Below are positions 1 through 40,913 of a DNA stretch of 64,000 bases, piece by piece. The stretch is from Octopus vulgaris (lineage: Eukaryota). The stretch's first letter is position 1. Each line of letters opens with the position of its first letter. The position numbers were made by a program, and so were the translations under genes. The stretch is taken from positions 38,564,001 to 38,628,000 of the forward strand of contig OX597815.1 in assembly GCA_951406725.2 (NCBI GenBank), read 5' to 3'. The notes under the pieces were generated by a model, which saw only the letters and a program-made list of their open reading frames with translations, was not told where the DNA came from and did no database searches.

Positions 1-446
1 CACATAGCTAGCTAGAGGCGATGGCCTCTTGGAGCTAATCAACGGCAGCATTCGTCCTGTTTTTCTGGACTACCATGTTAGCTTGGCGATAACTATTAAT
101 ATCCAGTATCGCTGCCATTGTCTCCTTTAGAGAGAATTAGAAATAATATTTCTAATTTTGAAAACCAGTGAATCTATTCCACTGAATATAGGTAAATAAT
201 CCTCCGAATAGTCGATCAGCAGTGACGCCTGCTGGGTTCGGCTACTCCACATTGATAAGAGGCAAGCACCTCGAAACTAGTCTGTGGATGCCAGACCAGC
301 AAGGGGAAGCTGCTGACCTCCCCTGTTCGAAGGTTATAATGGACACAGGTTTGTGTGTCACATAGCTAACCTCTTGGAGCTAATCAACAGCAGGATTCCT
401 CCTATTTTTCTGGACTCCCATGTTAGCTTGGCGATAACTATTAATA
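1..446 (+). repeat. Tandem ~358-bp non-coding unit with hammerhead ribozyme (retrozyme-like, family A); runs off the window start
   Basis: 1-101 recurs, diverged, at 359-446 (cacatagcta...gcgataactattaata). The unit has several hairpins (aattagaaata/tatttctaatt, gacaca/tgtgtc, agggga/tcccct) and an HHR at 230-301. Confidence 0.75.
230..301 (+). ncRNA. Type I hammerhead ribozyme, U3-A8 core variant
   Basis: tccaca-TTGATAA-gagg(caagca)cctc-GAAAC(ta)GTC-tgtgga. Stem I extends via ggc/gcc and tgctgg/ccagca with a tac/t internal loop. Predicted cleavage after C282. Confidence 0.8.
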
Positions 447-662
447 CTTATTCTATCGTCTACGATATAATAACAGAACTAATAGTGTTGCTATTTTCTT
501 CTAAACAGCCAGATATCTGAGATTTTAAAATGGAAAATAAAAGGTGTGTATGTCACGCTTTTCCTTCGGCATTAGACTCATTATATAAACCGAAATGCTT
601 CCAGCAAAATATTGTGTCTGGAAGGTAGACTGCGCTTTCTATGACATTTTTCTACAATGAAC

Positions 663-819
663 GGCGCAAGCGTAGCTGTGTCGTAAGAAGTTTGCTTCAC
701 AACCATATGGTTCGTGTTCAGTTTCACTCATGTGACTGAATTTGTAGGTGACGCTACTTTTCTTTGAAGGACACACTTGGGAGTGAATTTGGTAGATGGA
801 AACTAAGTAGCCCGTTGGC

Positions 820-896
<77 letters not shown>

Positions 897-1075
897 GTAT
901 GTGTGTGTGTTTTGTCCAAATCTCTAAGAAAATTAAAATTTATATATATATATATATATATATTATATTCAATTAGAGATAAAACCACTGTTAGGCAAAT
1001 ATATGCCAGGTGGTGCTATTAAGTTAGACATGGCCTGGGCCAATACTGGCCAAAACCTTTCTAAGTTATTCTAAG

Positions 1076-1108
<33 letters not shown>

Positions 1109-1330
1109 TGTGGGAGTGTGTGCGTCTTTGTGTCTGTTTGTCCCAACTACTGCTTGACAACCGGTGTTGATTTGTTTACATCCCCGTAACTTAGTGGTTC
1201 GGCAAATGAGACGGTAGAATATATCCCAGGCTTAAAAGGAAAAATAAGTTTTGTGCTCGAATCGTTCGACAAAAATTTCTTATGGCGGCGCTCCACCATG
1301 ACCACAGTGTAATGACTGAAACAAGTAAAT
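663..1330 (+). mobile_element. tRNA-derived SINE family 1 (internal TA/TG microsatellite), interrupted
   Basis: Head ggcgcaagcgtagctgtgtcgtaag and tail gcggcgctcca...gactgaaacaagtaaa; homologous to copies at 35819 and 61640. Confidence 0.8.
1003..1080 (+). mobile_element. 3' tail fragment of CR1-group LINE
   Basis: caggtggtgctattaagttagacatggcctgg...ctaagtt repeats match the 3' end of the LINE at 40835-40913. Confidence 0.75.
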
Positions 1331-1460
1331 TATAGAAAATAATTATAAAGGCCAGATTCGGAAACAAACCATCTTTAACGATAAAGTAGTGACAACCATA
1401 AGACTAATTATAGGTTACTGCTAATTCGAATCATAAATTCCATGTAATTTTGAAATTATA

Positions 1461-2795
1461 TCAGGCTGAGTAAAACGTAAGCAACGTTTTGAAACAGGAA
1501 ATTCGTCGCAATGAAATTCAACAATGCGGAAATTTTATTCATCAAAGTATCATTACCATCAACACATTTTTTGCCAATGGGTTACACGTTTGTTTATTCT
1601 GGTAACATAACGATCTGGAGTTCTGGAGTTGTTGAACTCTTTGAACGAACTTTCAGCATCGGTTTGATTTTTTTAACTCCTTCTCTCGCAGGAAACCATC
1701 AAGATACTTGAAAAAGTGGTAGTCAGTAGGAGAAACATCTGGGGAATGAGCTGTGTGGGAAGAACTTCGTAGCCAAGCTCCCCCCATTAATGGAGCGTGG
1801 AATTATTTGCTCTCTTCTTTTGACCAGTCTGAGACGGAGGAGTAGCAGATTTTCGTTCATTGTGGCTATTTCATGGCAATAAGTTTCTGTAGTAATGGCT
1901 TTTCCGGGTTTTAAGAAGTCATAGTGCAGGAGTCCAGCAGTACACCTCCAAACAGTAACCATAACCTTCTTTTTGAAGAGCTCGGGATTAGGGAAGGTTT
2001 TCGGTGCTCCATCTTGGTCCAACCAAAATTGTAAAGAATCCACTTTTCATCGCAGGTTACAATACGGTCGAGAAATGGATCGGTCTGATGACGGAGAAGA
2101 AACGACGAGCAAATTTAATATCTGCGCATTTTCTGATTTTCATTCAAATTGTGTGGTAGCCATTTGTATTATCAGACAATTTCAAAAAAATGTTTTAAAA
2201 ATATTCTTCATGGTCCAAATCGTTGCTTGCTTACCTTTCACTCCACCTGATAGAATGCTCGAGAGCGATTGCACATTTTTGATTCCACTTTTTTTAATTT
2301 TCCGATCGCATGCAACGTTGCAGGTAGTTTTCTGGCTAATTTGAAGTTCTTTTGCCAGTTCTCGGGTGGTTTTACGTGGATCTGTCTCAATGACGGTCTT
2401 TAATTCACCATCAACGATGACAGATGGGCGTCCGCTACGCTCACGATCTTCAAGGCTCAGGTCTCCACTGCGAAATCGTTTAAACCATTTTCGAGTTGAC
2501 CACCCACTGGTCATTTCTTCACCAAATATTTCGTTGATATCGCGAGCAGTTTCAGCTGCTTTACGTCCTTTTTTGAAGTTGAATAACAAAGTTGCTCGAA
2601 TGCTGCACTTTGACATTCCATTGCAGATGATTGTAACAAAAGTGAGAAAAATATCTATGTTAACTTATTGATGCATTTGAGCAAGTCTATGTCTGTATTA
2701 TCAGATAATTGCGAAAAGTTTTCTTTTCAGAACTCTGCAAAAATCCGCTCCAATTCTTCATGGTCCAAAGCGTTGCTTCCTTTTACTCAACCTGA
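1461..2795 (-). mobile_element. Mariner DNA transposon, defective transposase
   Basis: TIRs tcaggctgagtaaaa...gcaacg / cgttgc...ttttactcaacctga with TA on both sides. ORF 2182-2616 has the mariner HTH (KAAETARDINEIFG, WFKRFRSGD, RSGRP). ORF 1723-2043 has KKVMVTVW/G.TIT...YC of the catalytic domain. Confidence 0.9.
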
Positions 2796-4116
2796 TAGAA
2801 TGCTAGAGGCTACTGCGCATTTTTCATTCCATTCTTCTAAATATTTTACACCTTGCGTTTCAAGAATGAATGAATAATGATGATATCAACATAAAAAAAA
2901 ACAGGACACAGCGTTTCCATACAGAGGCGAATTACAATTCTTCGTATCTGCTTTACATTGTCAATCACATTTTACATACCGAATAAATGAGCTTTCCGAA
3001 TCTTATATAGATATATAGATAATTAGATACATACATACATACATACATACATACATACATACATACATACATGTGTGTTTGTGTGTGTGTGTATACATAC
3101 GCATCTACGTACGTATGTATGTATTTATTAAGTTTATTAAGTCAATGTTATCCAACCGTATGCTAACAGTATTTTGATTTCATTTTCAGATATTCTGTAG
3201 ATTTTCTATAGAATTCAGAGCCGTCACTCTTAGTTACGTGTTGTAAACATGTACGGCTATATAAACAATATAATAGAAAAAAGATATCATATGTATATTA
3301 TATATTCTAGCGAAATTTGAGTATTTTACTTATAGTTTTATTCACTTTGTCCCGAAATTTTCGCTACTGATATCACCAAACAGTTCATGAAATCACCATG
3401 TAATAAATTACTTATCGATTTTAATTTAACGAAAACCGTGACGCGCATTATGTAATTTTTCATGGAATGCGGCTAGGCGTGCCTCTCTAATCAATTCACT
3501 AATGTTATAATGGTAATCAGCAGCTACAGACTGTTTAGAAACTTTAATGTATAGTGATTTGTATTTCTTCTCATTGTGTTTATTTAAACATTTCATTGCG
3601 GATATCCACGATATACCATTTGGCTAAGTAAATCTACTTCTCATATAATATTGAATCATTGACAAAAGACTGTTATGATAAGCAGAAAGTGCTGAATAGT
3701 TTAGTTTTTCTTGCGCATTGTTAAGGGCACAATTTAGAATTGCCATCGGTCAATTGGATAATTTCATGTAATTCTTGAAACAGGAATGAGAAAAATGTTA
3801 TTTCTTTGTTTTTGTTTTTAATTGTTAACGGAAAATACTAATAATAATTCTCTAAATGAGATATAGACAGTAACTGCAAAATACATTTGCTGATTTCGAA
3901 AATCTGTTCGACAGCAATAATAATTCTCTAAATGAGATATAGGCAGTAACTGCTCCATAACATAAGGGACTAAAGCCATCTGAATATGGCTAGGGATAGG
4001 GCAGGGTGGTGGGGGTGTTACTGTTGCATTTAGCTCCAGGCGAACATCAACGTCGCCAGATAGGCTTGACACTATCACGGTGTCCTTTATCCTGCAAAGG
4101 GAGATAATTCCCCGAT

Positions 4117-4190
4117 GAAGCGGAAACCACACACGGACCTAGGTTTCAAGGTGTATTGCCTATCATCAACGTGTGGTAGGCCCCCGCTTC
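4117..4190 (-). ncRNA. Type I hammerhead ribozyme (family B copy 1)
   Basis: Reverse complement of the motif at 4301-4374. Confidence 0.8.
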
Positions 4191-4300
4191 CTCGACGAAC
4201 AACCCACTCTGCAGGATATTTATATATAGATTTTCAAGCAAAATACATTTGCTGATTTCGAAAATCTGTTCGACAGCAATAATAATTCTCGTTCGTCGAG

Positions 4301-4374
4301 GAAGCGGGGGCCTACCACACGTTGATGATAGGCAATACACCTTGAAACCTAGGTCCGTGTGTGGTTTCCGCTTC
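4301..4374 (+). ncRNA. Type I hammerhead ribozyme (family B copy 2)
   Basis: cacacg-TTGATGA-t-agg(caataca)cct-t-GAAAC(ctag)GTC-cgtgtg. Extended stem I gaagcgggggcc/ggtttccgcttc with a tac/t loop. Predicted cleavage after C4355. Confidence 0.85.
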
Positions 4375-4662
4375 ATCGGGGAATTATCTCCCTTTGCAGG
4401 ATAAAGGACACCGTGATGGTGTCAAGCCTATCTGGCGACGTTGATGTTCGCCTGGGGCTAAATGCAACAGTAACACCCCCACCACCCTGCCCTGTCCCTA
4501 GCCATATTCAGATGGCTTTAGTCCCTTATGTTATGGAGCAGTTACTGTCTATATCTCATTTAGAGAATTATTATTGCTGTCGAACAGATTTTCGAAATCA
4601 GCAAATGTATTTTGCTTGAAAATCTATATATAAATATCCTGCAGAGTGGGTTGTTCGTCGAG

Positions 4663-4736
4663 GAAGCGGGGGCCTACCACACGTTGATGATAGGCAATAC
4701 ACCTTGAAACCTAGGTCCGTGTGTGGTTTCCGCTTC
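4663..4736 (+). ncRNA. Type I hammerhead ribozyme (family B copy 3)
   Basis: Same motif 362 nt downstream; predicted cleavage after C4717. Confidence 0.85.
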
Positions 4737-4906
4737 ATCGGGGAATTATCTCCCTTTGCAGGATAAAGGACACCGTGATAGTGTCAAGCCTATCTGGCGA
4801 CGTTGATGTTCGCCTGGGGCTAAATGCAACAGTAACACCCCCACCACCCTGCCCTGTCCCTAGCCATATTCAGATGGCTTTAGTCCCTTATGTGGAAAAT
4901 ACTAAG

Positions 4907-5307
4907 TTACTCTTTTACTCTTTTACTTGTTTCAGACATTTGACTGTGGCCATGCTGGAGCACCGCCTTTAGTCGAGCAAATAGACACCAGGACTTATTC
5001 TTTGTAGGCCTAGTTCTTATTCTATCGATCTCTTTTGCCGAACCGCTAAGTTACAGGGAATGTAATCACACCAGCATCGGTTGTCAAGCGATGTTGTGGG
5101 GACAAACACAGACACACAAACATATACACACGCATACATATTATGACGGGCTTCTTTCAGTTTACGTCTACCAAATCCACTCACAAGGCTTTGGTCGGCC
5201 CGAGGATATAGTAAAAGACACTTGCCCAAGGTGCCACGCAGTGGGACTGAACCCAGAACCATGTGGTTCGTAAGCAAGCTACTTACCACACTGCCATTTC
5301 TATGCCT
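4907..5307 (-). mobile_element. SINE family 1
   Basis: Reverse complement of the 35819-36235 consensus, with gtaaaaga tail repeats. Confidence 0.85.
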
Positions 5308-7112
5308 ATAAGTTGCATGATATTCTTAATGATTTTTTTTCTATTAACTTCATATATATGTCTTCGAATTAGTTGTTATTCTAATACTGATTAGATGGCA
5401 GAAATGGTAGACGAACTGAATAAAAGCAAACTTAACAGTACTATTCTATTTGCGTTCTTTGTTCAAATCTCTCCTGGATGTCTGCTTTCACCATTCAGGG
5501 GTCGATATTATTTCTTTCAAAAGAAAGAAATAATAATGTAATTTGTTCAGTTAACCGTACAACACGACAGGCTTAGGGCAAGTAAAAGAAAATCGATATT
5601 TCAGTGTCTGAAGATAGTTTAGTCGGGAAGATTCCCCTCAAGTAGCTGAAATATAAACAGTTCACATTTTGTTGCCAGTGTTGCTGTCTTATGACACTTA
5701 ATTTCTATAGCTATAAATATGTAAATGTATAATATGAAGTAAAATTCAGTGGAATCATTGTATAGTTGATCACGCTTTTATTAGACTGCTTGTATGCTGA
5801 GATCAAAAGTTTTCACTAACTATTAGAAGGCAATGAACAGCATCGTTAATTTGCCATTAAGTGTATAACACGTGGTTTCGTGATCTGACAGACATATAAA
5901 ACAAAAGTCTCTCAGATTATGCATGGTGTTTCTGATAATCATATTAGTATTGCTGTCTTCTCATCACATTGGCCCTTTCTCGGGTTTAACGGAGTGTAAC
6001 TAATTACCAGTAATGTGATTTAATCGGGAAGCAGTACATTACCGGTATTTTGTCTCAACGAATCACTTCAGTTGAATATAGGTAGTATATAAAAATAAAG
6101 GCCACTGTCGACCTTTTTTTCTTTTTCCTTTTTGTCTTTCTAGTTACTATGATTTTTACTTATTTTCACTTGGGGAAGCCGTGATATAATATATTCCTAC
6201 ACAGACACAAGAAAAAACAAAATCATGAAATCTAAAGTATTCTCAACACACCTTGATAACCTTTTTCAAAGATGTCCTTCTAAAGAACGTGATGACACAA
6301 AAATTAATTGAAGGAAGCAGGTCATTGGCTACTAACGCTTTATCAATAATGCAAATGTTATTTACCTTAGTTATGCTTTAATCCCAGGTGATGAATAAAA
6401 TAATGGCTAGAAAACAAAATTAGTAAAAGAGACACAAAGAAAAGGTATAATTCTATGGTGGGTCAGAATCTAATAGGGTAGTTAACGATTTGCAGCCATG
6501 TTTGAATGTCTTTATATTAAGATTGAATAAATAAACTAAGTAACGTATCGTTGTCATTTACTCTGTATAGAGACGGAAACCAAATGAGGAGAGACAAGTA
6601 TTGAACACTGTCGACTCAGGTAGGAATTGAATTAATAAACTGGAAAAGTACTATTTACTTTATATGATGGTGAAACGAAGAGAACTAATTATCAAATAAT
6701 AGAATATTTATTTTGAATAGCTATTATTGAGTATTTAACTCTCTTTATCTCAGAAGAGGTAACACATGAGTTATTAAGCCTATACTTTTCTCAGGAAAAA
6801 CTAATGACATACACTACATGAAATAGAATCGAAAACAGAATCGAATTCTAAGATACAAACAAATCTACTTAGTGGCTTAAATATATACTTAGTGATATTT
6901 GCTTTGAACAAAATATCCAAAATATTTTCAGCAACAATAAGTATCAATCTAGTGAGATTTACTTCACTGCAGTAACAATATCACTTGACACATTAAGATA
7001 TTATAATTCGTTACTTGAAATAAGACACTCTCAGTAGCTAGACATTGTTCCCATTCTAGGTAAAAATAATTATTACTCAGTACATGTATGATTTATGAGT
7101 TTTTTAACATAG

Positions 7113-9534: not shown

Positions 9535-10335
9535 ATTAGGAAATCAATATCAAAACTCCTCAGAAAGATTTACACATCTGAAAAATAATTGTTGTATTAA
9601 AAATATATAAATAAATAAATATAAATATGTATAAAAATATATGTAAATATGTATAAGTATAAATATATAATGTATATGACAGTTTAAAAGTTTTGAATTA
9701 ATTATTTAAAGCATCTTAAGATCGTTTCACAGAAAAGTTGTCCCTATAATGAAATCCTATCTTTGATAAGTAATTATAGACAACGCTTCTGCTCTTCAGA
9801 GATATAAAATTTGGATTCTGTATAACATATCGAATGATAGTTTTCTTTTCTTAAAATTGAAGTAAAACTATAAAAGGTTGTTTGTTTGAAAGATAAATTA
9901 AAATTAAAAATTACTGCTTTTGATGAGTCTTTAAATTCATATATACTTCCTTGGTTATTCTTCTTCAATAATCCATAATATTCATATGTAAAATCCGTTA
10001 TATTATCTTGTATTCCAAATATAGTTCATATAGTTAGCTTAGAAGTGTGAAATTTCTATATACTTTAGTATGAGAATCTTGAAATTCACATTCTTCCTGG
10101 TAATTCCTATGTAGCAATCCATAATGCTTTTGTTTTGGTAATTCCTCTGTAGCAATCCATAATACTTTTGTATAAAATTCATTATATTATCCGGTAATCC
10201 AAATATAGTTCATAATACAAAATCAAATTATATTTCAAATTAAATGGGAAGTTATAAAATTATAAACTGGTCAAAATATAGCTTTTATATTTTTATTTCT
10301 ATAATTTGAAGATGCCAATTTAAATTTTATAGACA
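9535..10335 (-). repeat. Inverted copy of the PLE terminal repeat (pLTR)
   Basis: Reverse complement of 12700-12782 joined to 16473-17184; near-identical spurious 64-aa ORFs at 9774-9968(-) and 16767-16961(+). Confidence 0.85.
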
Positions 10336-10559: not shown

Positions 10560-12400
<1,841 letters not shown>

Positions 12401-16472: not shown

Positions 16473-17184
16473 AATTTTATAACTTCCCATATAATTTAAA
16501 AGATAATTTGATTTTGTATTATGAACTATATTTGGATTACCGGATAATATAATGAATTTTATACAAAAGTATTATGGATTGCTACAGAGGAATTACCAAA
16601 ACAAAAGCATTATGGATTGCTACATAGGAATTACCAGGAAGACATGTGAATTTCAAGATTCTCATACTAAAGTATATACAAATTTCACACTTCTAAACTA
16701 AATATATGAACTATATTTGGAATACAAGATAATATCACGGATTTTACATATGAATATTATGGATTATTGCAGAAGAATAACCAAGGAAGTATATATGGAT
16801 TTAAAGACTCATCAAAAGCAGTAATTTTTAATTTTAATTTATCTTTCAAACAAACAACCTTTTATAGTTTTACTTCAATTTTTAGAAAAGAAAACTATCA
16901 TTCGATATGTTATACAGAATTCAAATTTTATATCTCTGAAGAGCAGAAACGTTGTCTATAAATGCTTATCAATATAGGATTTCACAACTCTTCTGTGAAA
17001 CGATCGTTAGATGCTTTAAATAATTTAAAACTTTTAAACTGTCATATAATTATATATTTATACTTATACATATTTACATAATTTTTATACATATTTATGT
17101 TTATTTGTTTATATATTTTTAATACAACAATTATTTTTCACACGTATATATCTTTCTGAGGAGTTTTGATATTGATTTCTTAAT
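16473..17184 (+). repeat. Distal part of the PLE 3' terminal repeat
   Basis: Continues 12700-12782 after the LINE; inverted partner at 9535-10265; decayed HHR-like core ctgaaga-gca-gaaac-gtt-gtc at 16936-16956. Confidence 0.8.
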
Positions 17185-20927: not shown

Positions 20928-22670
20928 TCAATCAGGTTGCCGGGTAGGTCTATAGTTCTTGTAGTTCGCATACTTCTTATGCATGCAATTTGGGGAGTGT
21001 TCTGAAAATTTGTTAAGGAGAGGGCCTTTGGCGAACAAGATCTCTAGGCTCTCTGATATGCATAGGTCACAGCAGGTATGTCCTCCTGTGTACGAGCGCG
21101 CCTTCTGTAGTAGTTTCCACTTGGTCTTGAAGGGGATTGAGTTCCTTTTAAGGTACCAGATGTGGGCGGCGAGGGTAGTTTGGTTGGATTTATCCTGTCG
21201 CCGGAACGAGTGTGTATGTGCGTACCAGCGGGTCTTAAAGCTGTTTGACGTCATTCCAATGTAGGATTTACTTTTATCGTCAAGGCCTGATCTTACCTCG
21301 CATTTATATACTAGGTCCCTCTGTAGGCAGTTGTTGTTGAGGGGGCAGGTGGTTTTATCATGGCAGTTGCAACTGCTATCGGACGTTGGATGGGCCCCGG
21401 AGAAAGTAGATATGTTAAGTTTTTTCACATTGTTGTTGGCTAGGTTCCTGGCTAGATTGGGCGTGGTAGAGTAGGAGAGTCTAATAGTGTTCTTATTTAG
21501 GATAGTGTAGTACTTATGTTGGGTGGGGAAGTGTTTCTGTAGGAGAGTGAAAAAGATCTTAGCTACAGGTGTAGCGACCTCACGGTTGAAGGGGGGTTGT
21601 ACCAGCTAATGTGTCTTCGTCTATTTTTCCTGGGTTGGCGTGGGGCTATACTAGTGTAGGTAATCTTATCTTTAAAACCACTGCGGGCCAGGGCCTCGTT
21701 GTAATAGGGGGCTGCGGCTTTAAAGATATCTTCCGTGGCGGACAGGCTAGAGATTCTAATTGAGACACTTTTTACTAGGTTATCTAATATATTTTTGGGG
21801 TGGTTGGAATTGATATCTATATATCTAAGGGATTCATTTGGTTTGTGGTACGGGTAATAAAGTGAGGTTTTTAAGTCGAGGGTGACATCGAGGAAGTTAG
21901 CCTTTGTTAAGTTGGATTCTAGGGTAATCCTAAGGCCTAAGTTTTTAAAGAAGGTGTGAAGATTTTTCCGGAACCCATCCGTGGTCCTGGGGTTTATATT
22001 GTGGAGGGCGAAAAGGCCGTCATCTCGGTAAAGACCACCGGAAGGCCTGTGAATAGGGTTTTCAGCCTATGGAGGATGAAAAGGCCCACTAGGTCACTTA
22101 TTTCAGCAGAGTCGTTAGCACCCATGCTGACGTCGAAGGGGGTCACAGATTTTTTGTTGATCCAGTGGGATCCGTCATAGAAAAGAAAAGTCTTACGTGC
22201 GTGGAGGATCACATCTTGCTCGGCCTCGGTGATGGTGGAGGACCTCCTGGCGAAGTTAATCGCATCGATCAGCAAGCTCTCCGATATAGAGGCGTAGTAA
22301 TCCTCGATATCCAGTTGTAGGAATCGGGTGTTGCTTTTATCTGGTAAATCCCGGAACCAGGTTATTGCCTCGGAGGTCCTATTCCAGAGTGGAAGGGGTG
22401 AAGCTTCACGCATTTTTGGTAAAATCCTGTCCAGGATCTTCTTGCTGACGGATCCGATGTCAGACTTGGTTGGGTTAATCAAACGGACCGACGGTTTATT
22501 TTCGAAATGGTCTTTGTGGTCTTTCAGGGTGAAGTGTGGGGACTTCACCCTCAGGGGTTCTGTTCGGTCGTCGATTTTAAGGGAGGTGGCAATCTCTTTC
22601 CCGGCCAAGTTGGTTTCAGTTAGCGCTGCGTCGTCTACTTTCTTGTATTTAGCTGTGATGGCGACATCTC
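20928..22670 (-). pseudogene. PLE reverse transcriptase plus GIY-YIG endonuclease, about 3 frameshifts
   Basis: RLINPTKSDIG, LDIEDYYASI, FDVSMGANDSAEISDLVG, GLYRDDG, NFLDVTLDL, WYNPP, CNCHDKTTCPLNNNC, LVYKC...YIG...FKTRW..H, CDLCISE, CMH. Confidence 0.95.
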
Positions 22671-22860
22671 CTAGCTGTGACGGCATCATCAGCAAATAAC
22701 ATTGTAATATACATTGTTTGGCATCTTCTTCTCACTCTTACTGTCACATGCCTTTCAGACATCAGATGATGGAGTGACGGGAAACTGTTCAATCTCTCGC
22801 GCCTGTGTGCCAAGAACAAAATCAGAAACGTCCTGATCAAGGAGATGTTATTTGCTGATA
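22670..22860 (+). mobile_element. RTE-clade RT fragment with a small inverted duplicate
   Basis: Plus frame DGKLFNLSRLCAKNKIRNVLIKEMLFAD; minus MLFADDAV at ~22675-22702. Confidence 0.65.
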
Positions 22861-37599: not shown

Positions 37600-40500
37600 A
37601 TAAGCAAACCGAGACAAAAATAAGATATATATAAGTTCAATACAACCACGTTTCCCCTCCTACAATCAAACAACGTAGACAGAACCATGAAAAAACACCA
37701 AATAACGCCAACTTGAAATATGTATCCTCTGACCAAGTGGCAAACCAAACAAGTAACTCTTTTTTACTGACATACCTGGAAAATATGAAGGCCGACCTAA
37801 GCCAGGAGATCCAGCGAGCCATCACCAACCATCTATGCAAATCACAAGGACCACTCACCCATTACCAACTTCCCTTACCTCGACATTCCTGTTAAATGTA
37901 CGTGGCATCAACCCATCAATTATTGCCCAAAAATGGAAGATCCCATATATAGAGAGTTGGCTTGCCGAAATGGCACATTGCTTCCCTTTCTTTATCCTTA
38001 CCGAGACTCACCTGAACAACACCCATATGGACGCAGAGGTGAAAATAAAAGATTTCACCATTGTTCGTGCGGATCGCACAGACCGAAATAAGGGAGGGAC
38101 AGCCATCTTTATCCATGACTCCTTTTCACTTGATGTCAAGGACACATTTTCCAATGGCTACTGTGAATCGGTATCACTATACAACAAAGCCAATGACATA
38201 ACCATTGTTGGTCTTTACAGGCCTCCCCAGGCACCTCTAAAGTAATTTGAAGAGTGCCTTAGCAAAGTCAAGTCCTTCCTTCGGAAGTACCACTCCGGAA
38301 ACATACTAGTGATGGGTGATTTTAACCTCCCTCATGTGAACTGGCCCACAAATACTCCGAAGTTAGGCAAGTGCTCTACATCAGATAGGGCAGCAGCAGA
38401 ACTGCTCTTTAATCTGATGGATGAGTATTTCCTGACTCAGCTAGTGCTTGAACCAACGAGACAGAATAAAACGATCTTGGATCTGGTATTGACCAATCAC
38501 TCTAGCTACGTTCACAGTATTTCAGTCGAAAAAACTCTCCTCTCAGACCACGACATGGTACTCTGCAATCTTAATTCCCGACATATAAAAACCAAACCAG
38601 CCAATCCCACTCCATGGCACCCATTTGACAACATAAACTTCCACAAAGCGGACTGGGGAACAATCAGAAAGGATCTGTCTTCCATCGACTGGTCTTTTAC
38701 TCTCAATTCCCCTCATATTGAGACCGCGTGGCAGCACTTTGAAAACATTATCACCTATACATGCTCTAAACACGCTCCCAAGAAATCTACTAACACAAAC
38801 AGAAACCGGCTCCCTAAAAAGATAAAAACACTCATCAGGCGCATCAAAAGACTCAACAAAAAAATCAACCAATTAAAATATTCCTACACACAACATCCAC
38901 ATTCAACAACAATGAAAAGACTAGAGCTGGAAAAACTTCATCTGCAGACTAACATGAAAACCTCCATTGAAAATCAAAGAGCTGTGGAGGAACAATGGGT
39001 AATCAAAAACATCAAACAGAACCCAAAAGTGTTCTATTCTTATGCAAATAAGCATAGAACCACTGTCTCACCCATTGGGCCATTGATTGATGATAACGGC
39101 ATTCCCCAACACGATGCTAAAGAAATGGCAGAAATACTGCAGAAACAATACTGCTCTGTCTTCAGTGTTCCCACTGATATTGACGTGAGGGAAACGAACG
39201 AAGTTGACTCCCAACACAAAATCGCAGACATAACCTTCACTGCCACCGACATCGTAGCAGCAATAAATGAGGTCAAACATTACTCTGCTGTAGGCCCTGA
39301 TAGATTTCCCGCTAGTCTCCTGAAGGAATGTAGATATCAACTTGCAGTCCCTCTGACCAACCTCTGGAGAAACTCGTTAGACGCAGGTTATATACCGAAA
39401 CAGTTTCTATCCCAGTCGGTCATCCCGGTTTTCAAGCAAGGAAACAGATCCCTCGCAGTCAATTATCGCCCAATCTCACTCACCTCCCACATCATTAAAG
39501 TGTTTGAAAGAGTGTTAAGATCAAGGATAGCTGACTTCCTGGAGACCCACAAACTCCTAAATTCAAATCAGCATGGCTTTCGCTGTGGCAGGGACTGTCT
39601 AACACAGCTCTTACACCACATTGAAGATGTACTCAAAGCCTTGGGAACAGGTTCGAACTCTGACGTCATATATCTCGACTTCAGTAAAGCGTTCGACAGG
39701 GTAGACCATAACATCCTACTCTCAAAATTGGCAAATGTTGGAATCCGTGGAAAAGTTCTACACTGGATTAAGTATTTCCTGGCGAATAGAACACAACATG
39801 TTGTAGTTGATGGAGTCCACTCAAACCTAGCAAAAGTCACCAGCGGTGTTCCCCAGGGAACTGTTTTGGGTCCGCTACTCTTCATAATTTACGTAAACGA
39901 CCTTTCCAGTGTCGTACATCACTGCAAAGTGAAAATATTCGCTGATGACACTAAGCTCCAGCAAATCGTCAATGAAGAAGCAGACCGAACTCAACTCCAG
40001 TCTGATCTATATGCTGTGAGTCAATGGGCAGACAGAAACAAAATGCAACTGAATGAGGGAAAATTTGAGCTGATGCATTTTGGAAGAAATTCCTCACTAA
40101 AACAACCATACTCTCTTCCTTCAGGGGAACCGCTCACAGCCTCTAACAATATCAGAGACCTGGGTGTAATTGTTGATGACGATCTCAGTTGGAGTGCACA
40201 CAACAACAAGAAGGTCGATATAGCTCGTAGGATGAGTTCCTGGATCTTAAGAACTTTCCGGTCCAAAGAACAAGGTGTCATCATACCACTTTTTTCCTCC
40301 TTTGTACGGCCACACCTTGAATACTGCTGCCCACTGTGGTCTCCTCACACAAGACAAAACATCTCCAGAATTGAGTCACCCCAGAGGGCTCTTACTAAAC
40401 AAATTGAAGGCATGGCTGCTCTCGATTATTGGGATCGCCTTAAAGCCTTGAAACTTTACTCCCTCCAGCGTCGCCGTGAGCGGTACATCATTTGTACGAT

Positions 40501-40913
40501 GTGGAAAATATACCGTCAACTTTGCCCAAACGACCTAAACATTAGCTTCAAGGTTCATCCAAGACTTGGACCACGGGCTATACGTCCCCTGCCAAATTCA
40601 AGATCACAACATACATGTACACTGCAACATAATTTATTTTCCTCAACAGGCCCTGCCCTATTTAACATTGTCCCGAGGGAGATCAAAGAGGAAAAGGATC
40701 CCATCAACTTTAAACAGAGTCTGGATAGATTCCTTCAAAGAATACCAGATAAGCCACCCATAATTGGATACAACTTACCCAACAAGAACTCACTACTTGA
40801 ACAAAACTTGACTTAAACAGGATTCGAATAATCCTATCAGGTGGTGCTATTAAGTTAGACATGGCCTGGACCAATCTCTGGTCGAAACATATCTAAGTTT
40901 TATCTAAGTTTTA
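37600..40913 (+). mobile_element. CR1-group LINE, 5'-truncated
   Basis: Probable ORF1 tail, ORF2, and 3' UTR ending in (tctaagtttta) repeats; 5' boundary approximate. Confidence 0.9.
37835..40816 (+). pseudogene. LINE ORF2 (AP endonuclease plus reverse transcriptase) with one in-frame stop
   Basis: LNVRG, LTETHL, RADR..RNKGG, YRPP, TAA at 38243-38245, then the same frame continues GDFN, LDLVLT, SDH, NYRPISLT, YLDFSKAFD, GVPQGTVLGP, FADD, RPHLEY...WSP. Confidence 0.95.

Follow-up and report, generated by a model that had tools for sequence, protein, structure and literature searches.

Two apparently related families of seemingly non-coding, retrozyme-type tandem repeats, here called A and B, lie near the left end of a 64,000-nucleotide stretch of Octopus vulgaris DNA (contig OX597815.1, positions 38,564,001 to 38,628,000; the whole stretch is referred to as the window), and each contains a type I hammerhead-like fold. 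Together with a sister form of B seen in public sequencing runs, these make three related forms with three non-canonical cores – U3-A8 in family A, U3·G8 with a U·U mismatch in family B, and C3-G8 with C4 in the sister form. We think that family B is a throttled ribozyme that would cut slowly and only as a dimer, with slow or partial cutting being enough for its spread, and we put the probability of this reading at a little over one half (about 0.55).

The motifs were located with a relaxed type I descriptor that allowed any letter at positions 3, 7 and 8 and C or U at position 4, with at least six stem I pairs and a palindromic stem III. Exactly four matches were found on both strands of the window, at 252 (+, UUGAUAA) and at 4322 (+), 4684 (+) and 4169 (-) (all UUGAUGA), corresponding to the TTGATAA at 252-258 and the TTGATGA in three B copies named in the original prediction. 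One of 100 block-wise dinucleotide shuffles gave a single match, and no shuffle gave two; the four motifs are beyond chance. As had been anticipated, standard searches miss these cores: Rfam gave no match at gathering score in the whole window, and its 27 matches in 1-6000 at E-values up to 10 include no hammerhead family. Minimal-type descriptors with an optional extra nucleotide after A9 gave no additional hammerhead fold in the window, including beside and around the two fragments of Penelope-like elements (PLEs) described below.

In the family A fold and in each B fold, the core is enclosed by stems I to III as a three-helix junction with the open ends in stem I, which is the type I layout, and both families have the U4 G5 A6 N7, A9, G12 A13 A14, A15.1-U16.1 and H17 of type I hammerheads. 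Stem III is predicted in both to be stable only as an intermolecular duplex of its palindrome; that stem III is palindromic in family A too was not part of the original prediction. A single fold is visible in family A, the array entering the window mid-unit; its 3-8 pair is a Watson-Crick U3-A8, and G-C stands at 10.1-11.1. Each B copy combines a stem I of 6 bp with a U10.1 that faces U11.1 below three Watson-Crick pairs, a CAAUACA loop, the palindrome ACCUAGGU and C17, and its 3-8 pair is the U3·G8 wobble. An alternative register for B would treat the U as an extra nucleotide after A9, followed by A-U, G·U and G-C; the U·U register is favoured because the alignment puts the family A G10.1-C11.1 at the same places, and the U-U at 10.1/11.1 and palindromic stem III proposed for B both stand. 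Because it lacks a Watson-Crick 3-8 pair and a 10.1-11.1 base pair, B is filed, as judged from its letters, not with the consensus members but as a variant of the hammerhead fold carried by a retrozyme-type repeat. The A and B folds appear homologous by alignment; they agree at 29 of 37 letters (E-value 7e-4), with the UAC bulge and a CAA..CA loop 2 in both.

Family B forms one insertion (3842-4893), in which an inverted copy stands head-to-head with 1.67 direct units of 362 nt (Table 1). The second direct copy differs from the first at one position and the inverted copy differs at four. The three copies that had been reported are present, but the 12-bp target duplication marks them as a single event, and because all sit in one insertion they count once and not as three observations. 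A 798-nt contig from a public run (X7) is identical to the window across the left flank and 28 bases into the insertion, and since it crosses the left junction an assembly artefact there is unlikely. Statements on published work here and below refer to the portions of the cited texts that were examined. Partial tandems, a 5' copy in inverted orientation and an extension of 30-40 bp have been described for PLE insertions (10.1101/2021.04.23.441226), and the B insertion – an inverted 5'-truncated copy, a partial tandem and a short terminal extension – matches this pattern, with the segment at 3842-3877 as a putative PLE tail. No open reading frame for a reverse transcriptase with GIY-YIG, such as autonomous PLEs have between pseudo-LTRs, was found within the insertion, and just two stop-to-stop frames overlap family B (106 and 91 amino acids). 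The 362-nt B monomer is predicted to fold as a circle at -119.8 kcal/mol, compared with -91.7 +/- 4.4 in 60 shuffles (z -6.3).

Table 1. Features of families A and B, with positions in the window
Feature	Positions	Strand	Details
Family A array	1..446	+	truncated by window start; 345-nt period; one unit = 25-369; end near 446
Family A type I hammerhead fold	243..288	+	UAC bulge 243-245; stem I 246-251/283-288 (6 bp); core UUGAUAA 252-258; stem II 259-272 (4 bp, G10.1-C11.1, loop CAAGCA); GAAA 273-276; palindrome ACUAGU 276-281
Family A predicted cut	after C17 at 282	+	
Target-site duplication, left copy, 12 bp	3830..3841	+	identical to 4894-4905
Short duplicated segment	3842..3877	-	unit positions about 248-283; at 3' end of inverted copy; size similar to 30-40 bp PLE 'tail'
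Inverted family B copy	3842..4290	-	unit positions 273-362 then 1-325
Family B hammerhead, inverted copy	4130..4178	-	U3 4169, U4 4168, G8 4164, U10.1 4162, U11.1 4148, C17 4136
Direct family B copies	4291..4893	+	1.67 units of 362 nt; head-to-head junction at 4290/4291
Family B hammerhead fold 1	4313..4361	+	UAC 4313-4315; stem I 4316-4321/4356-4361; core UUGAUGA 4322-4328 (U3·G8); U10.1 4329, U11.1 4343; palindrome 4347-4354; predicted cut after C4355
Predicted 362-nt monomer, candidate circular RNA	4356..4717	+	between two predicted cut sites; GC 45.6%; 59% paired
Family B hammerhead fold 2	4675..4723	+	core 4684-4690; predicted cut after C4717
Target-site duplication, right copy, 12 bp	4894..4905	+	identical to 3830-3841

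The abundance and core letters of family B were assessed in public sequencing runs, with the B unit as query. At least half of the words sampled from the B unit were present in 20 of 24 listed runs (11 studies, five coded organisms), and no run that contains them is on record as RNA. Positions were tabulated from the contigs of four of these runs, compared with window 3500-4290 at 80% likeness and with the inverted copy as reference; on the presence of the insertion at this site in X12 and X13, the pieces inform only as far as 3793, a repeat-filter boundary. Three runs are DNA-type – X12 (coded organism A), X13 (coded organism E) and X7 (coded organism B) – and the fourth, X3 (coded organism A), is a possible RNA run. 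B is a multi-copy family: its summed contig depth exceeds that of the unique flank by a factor of hundreds to thousands, a ratio of depths and not a copy count, and many of its contigs are at least 95% alike (695 of 1,054 in X7; 326 of 522 in X12).

U3 makes up about 98% of summed contig depth in X12 and X13 and is the sole letter in the single covering contig of X3; C3 accounts for 1160.9 of 49237.3 in X12 (2.4%), 16.8 of 947.8 in X13 (1.8%) and 0 of 12 in X3. Positions 8, 10.1 and 11.1 have no second letter at 4% or more in any of the four runs, all of which cover that bin. Decay at this locus does not account for U3·G8, because U3 is dominant in X12 and X13 and position 8 has no such second letter. 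In X7, C3 takes 100240.4 of 104015.8 (96%), so that U3 is not fixed across the family and gives way in X7 to a sister form. This sister form, mapping to window 4168-4169 (-), has the core CCGAUGA, with C3-G8 restored and U4 changed to C: C3 and C4 have the same depth and contig count in X7 (six contigs) and X13 (one contig), and differ by fewer than 10 depth units in X12. By subtraction, canonical C3-U4 amounts to at most 3.6 of 49237 in X12 and is not separable in X7 or X13; because C3 is matched by C4 wherever it is seen, canonical CUGA is at most a trace among B relatives. A marker at 3956 follows the same pattern as C3 across the three DNA-type runs (6%, 76% and 5%); dropout alone is therefore a less likely cause than a true expansion, in X7, of a sister subfamily. 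One X3 contig of 373 nt passes once around a 343-nt unit (with a 19-nt deletion), overlaps itself by 30 letters and keeps U3 and G8; it is equally expected from a circular or a tandem template, and from RNA or DNA.

These depths bear on the possibility that canonical C3-G8 is the family consensus, with the window copy decayed or rare, or with its three copies an assembly artefact. The dominance of C3 in X7, a run with a flank identical to that of the window, would agree with it, as would the origin of the three copies in one event, but U3 at about 98% in X12 and X13 and the arrival of C3 together with C4 are against it, and the target duplication and the X7 junction contig point to a real insertion. 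This explanation is largely refuted, and we regard it as very improbable; independent decay from C3-G8, the outcome that would have undone the original prediction, is not what the tabulated positions 3 and 8 show.

Changes in related forms indicate, as far as sequence can, that the fold has been under selection in the wider B family. At one X13 joint the stem III palindrome has its two central letters exchanged with palindromy preserved, and this is also where the C3/C4 contigs of both X12 and X13 are clipped; because of this clipping, the C3/C4 form probably carries the swapped palindrome centre too. Two X13 contigs keep U3, G8 and U10.1 and differ at N7, in a loop 2 shorter by one base and in a stem I C-G that has become U·G, and where an extended stem I is predicted to have G·U pairs, changes at 4182 and 4183 make them A-U. 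Two other accounts of the core letters were considered. Pairing of positions 3-4 elsewhere in the unit as the cause of the linked UU/CC change was rejected, as both are unpaired (probability 0.01, circular ensemble). A-to-I editing of U3-A8 as the source of U3·G8 was set aside, because the predicted circles have few G·U pairs (10 of 107 in B, 6 of 106 in A) and the change may have run in either direction.

Folding predictions suggest how cutting could be held back. In the circular monomer as computed for B, two pairings have probabilities above 0.9: that of G5-A6-U7 with G16.2-U16.1-C17, and that of 10.1-10.4 with the palindrome. The active monomeric fold lies 6.2 kcal/mol above the minimum in B and 5.6 kcal/mol in A, and self-pairing of the palindrome is computed at -11.4 kcal/mol for B and -4.8 kcal/mol for A. 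Weak palindromic stem III helices are associated with dimer-dependent cleavage in published systems, among them an axolotl retrozyme that has the U·U and a 2-bp stem III and cuts weakly as a monomer and well as a dimer (PMC7229834).

We therefore propose no more than a model in which A and B would be copied by a Penelope-like reverse transcriptase, the insertion layout being observed and the enzyme presumed. In a transcript running through tandem units, each monomer would take an inactive shape with its core paired to the stem III palindrome; two units could then pair through their palindromes into a double hammerhead and be cut slowly. Slow cutting would free 362-nt monomers that could be ligated into circles, and uncut multimers or circles would serve as templates for new insertions. 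If slow, dimer-dependent cutting suffices for this cycle, weak cores could persist and spread; that they can is suggested by the purified PLE protein that inserted ribozyme-dead RNA normally, cleavage being dispensable in vitro and unprocessed RNA the main substrate (PMC11167929). That U3·G8 slows cleavage, as the original prediction supposed, is likely by analogy with pairwise mutagenesis, in which every single or double change around CUGA was low in activity save for the G3-C8 swap (PMC9901934). U3-A8 is not reported as a rescue in the examined part of that study but is cited as active elsewhere (PMC3088659), and a natural hammerhead with C3 and A8 is inactive (PMC8490949). As U3·G8 is one transition from C3-G8 and one from U3-A8, B looks like an intermediate, in either direction, of the swap completed in A.

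The insertion in the window spans three predicted cut sites, which fits the earlier suggestion that slow cleavage lets multimers survive to be copied. Such survival is not required, because a ligated circle explains the insertion equally, and because coral retrozymes with canonical fast ribozymes also build long arrays, of up to 62 units (PMC7229834).

The same span of three predicted cut sites would be expected if the B ribozyme were dead, with U3 deriving from one productive source locus, amplification by a PLE enzyme from read-through transcripts or by DNA-level array expansion, and a recent burst keeping the fold intact-looking. We consider this main rival reading unlikely. The low activity of single core changes (PMC9901934), PLE insertion in vitro that is independent of cleavage with unprocessed RNA as main substrate (PMC11167929), and the youth of the copies implied by the similarity of the X7 and X12 contigs all speak for it, but U3·G8 is kept in the more diverged X13 contigs, in which nearby changes fall at tolerated places, and no core position other than the linked C3/C4 has a second letter at 4% or more. 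To our knowledge U·G is also the mildest mismatch possible at 3-8, which counts against a dead ribozyme.

Near-normal activity of U3·G8, aided by loop 1-loop 2 contacts or a protein partner and with the core differences as neutral drift, seems to us distinctly improbable. The UAC bulge and CAA..CA loop that A and B have in common could provide such contacts, hammerheads are known to differ in their tolerance of core changes (PMC3884650), and an anole PLE ribozyme cuts only with protein present (PMC11167929). The mutagenesis data (PMC9901934) run contrary to it, as do five full folds among at least 119 metagenome loci, which all have canonical CUGAUGA although the search pattern allowed U3; four of the five are nearly identical.

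Several points weigh against a slowly cutting, dimer-dependent ribozyme. Cleavage and circle of B are predictions, and its transcribed strand and expression are presumed. B combines two weakening changes and, since single core changes already gave low activity (PMC9901934), may be cleavage-dead. The apparent selection was seen in sister or diverged forms and may date from an ancestor and not concern the present B, and part of the A-B similarity stems from the core shared by search design. The X7 flank is identical to the window, yet the U3 form is a minority there (about 4%), so that U3 may be the minority form in the genome nearest to the window. Summed contig depth reflects overlapping contigs and not a copy count, and short contigs can be missed; contig-level detail comes from 26 of 1,790 pieces, and 80% of X7 was read. 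DNA similarity of the B unit to the PLE-like fragments elsewhere in the window was looked for and none was found. A wider proposition – that a retrozyme clade has been selected for a throttled ribozyme, with B as an active, high-copy wobble hammerhead and living intermediate of the swap, and with core subfamilies replacing one another between close relatives – is possible, and we put it forward tentatively.

Family A is known from this window alone, the run search and contig comparison having concerned family B. Its segments 25-101 and 370-446 share 94% identity, and its circular unit is predicted to fold at -106.8 kcal/mol, compared with -80.5 +/- 5.1 in 60 shuffles (z -5.2). No stop-to-stop frame of at least 90 amino acids overlaps the array, and the unit contains a near-perfect 23-nt inverted repeat at 135-157. 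In the inverted B copy, the four substitutions relative to the first direct copy are at 3943, 3997, 4035 and 4073, and three of them are G to A on the RNA strand. The letters at these positions are also unlike nearly all public contig depth, and the second direct copy has the 4073 change as well, at 4780. The right target copy abuts the 5' end of a repeat resembling a short interspersed nuclear element at 4906-5300 (+), of which there is another copy in inverted orientation at about 776-1329 (-).

Two frameshifted Penelope-like fragments, each with a reverse transcriptase-like and then a GIY-YIG-like part, are at 20928-22731 (-) and 10704-12322 (+), and their endonuclease parts are 39% identical. 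None of their five PLE-like frames had a Pfam match, and a PDB search gave no match; the Atlas neighbours of one PLE fragment are commonest in Mollusca, with two records each. The SINE and microsatellite content of the window may likewise be octopus-like. A broken Mos1-like mariner transposase (Pfam HTH_48, Transposase_1) is at 1723-2664 (-), with short repeated ends around 2165-2263 and 2694-2808. An apparently uninterrupted 856-amino-acid open frame with reverse transcriptase-like motifs (38246-40816, +) belongs to what we take, from those motifs, to be an element like the long interspersed nuclear elements. Two-copy 38-bp tandem repeats at 10098-10171 and 16563-16636 are near reverse complements 6.4 kb apart, and may mark where a DNA element ends on either side.

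The descriptors behind genome-wide ribozyme censuses exclude altered cores (PMC3088659), so that an entire high-copy family like B would be discarded as decayed. If B cuts, the accepted hammerhead core is widened; if it does not, retrozymes amplify without a working ribozyme, consistent with the PLE result in vitro (PMC11167929). If B does cut, U3·G8, C3/C4 and U3-A8 would form a natural series in which it could be tested whether fast, slow or no self-cleavage is needed for retrozyme spread.

Among known systems, A and B most resemble the metazoan retrozymes that lack long terminal repeats, which are tandem units of 170-400 nt (350-390 bp in mussels) with one type I hammerhead each and a strongly self-paired monomer (PMC7229834; 10.64898/2026.07.22.740005). 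Family A (345 nt) and family B (362 nt, two consecutive folds) are likewise tandem and predicted to be self-paired, but circles and cleavage have been demonstrated for the metazoan retrozymes (PMC7229834), whereas A and B are known as DNA letters. B is like axolotl HHR_Amex2 / Rtz_353 in having a U·U at the base of stem II and a stem III of two pairs and a tetraloop, and A is like axolotl HHR_Amex1 in its one-pair stem III and palindromic tetraloop; both axolotl ribozymes work better as dimers. These axolotl motifs are described as canonical type I (all PMC7229834), from which B departs by its 3-8 wobble and A by its U3-A8 swap. The examined text of PMC7229834 makes no mention of U3·G8, U3-A8, C4 cores, octopus or cephalopods. 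U10.1·U11.1 is in print as a tolerated exception (PMC3088659, PMC7229834) and, being published for axolotl retrozymes (PMC7229834), is not the lineage-specific feature that had been suggested.

The U3-A8 covariation of family A is shared with the hammerheads of Schistosoma Cercyon PLEs, with about 1,300 U3-A8 matches in Schistosoma PLEs (PMC4209133), and several further natural U3-A8 hammerheads are known (PMC3088659). The Schistosoma Cercyon motifs are minimal and mostly single with a long stem II, in contrast to the 6-bp stem I, 4-bp stem II and 345-nt tandem unit of A (PMC4209133). The idea of a lineage-specific variant core thus does not extend to U3-A8. The sole natural core with U3 plus G8 found in the literature is a saltern hammerhead variant (PMC7151607), which differs from B in a 2-nt insertion before position 3 and in its source, halophile viral DNA as opposed to an animal repeat of high copy number (PMC7151607, PMC3088659); the saltern kinetics in PMC3088659 concern the C3 variant HHmeta. 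The core change of the C3/C4 form in X7 is the same as the CCGA (U4C) of zeta viruses and betaviroid-like RNAs, but theirs is a type III hammerhead in replicating RNAs and the sister form of B is a genomic type I repeat (10.64898/2026.09.16.752053).

Exact B-core patterns gave no loci in metagenome contigs and none in viral contigs, and the family A pattern gave none in viral contigs. A looser B stem II pattern gave at least 119 metagenome loci; seven of those listed have a stem I of at least four pairs, and five of the seven are full folds with a 6-bp stem I. The five (L016, L051, L074 and L106, around 400, and L070, at 238) have a closely related type I fold, with canonical CUGAUGA, U10.1·U11.1, a 3-bp stem II, a long stem III and a GUA cut triplet. 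The other two, with a 4-bp stem I, were judged to be chance matches, and none of the 119 loci listed has BLAST similarity to A or B at an E-value below 1e-3. Neither a high-copy U3·G8 family nor a cephalopod retrozyme turned up in the search listings and article text covered, and an earlier description is possible. The element class, U3-A8, the U·U mismatch, the palindromic stem III and most single features are already published; what is new is the widespread U3·G8 subfamily, together with the near-absence of the canonical core in its relatives.

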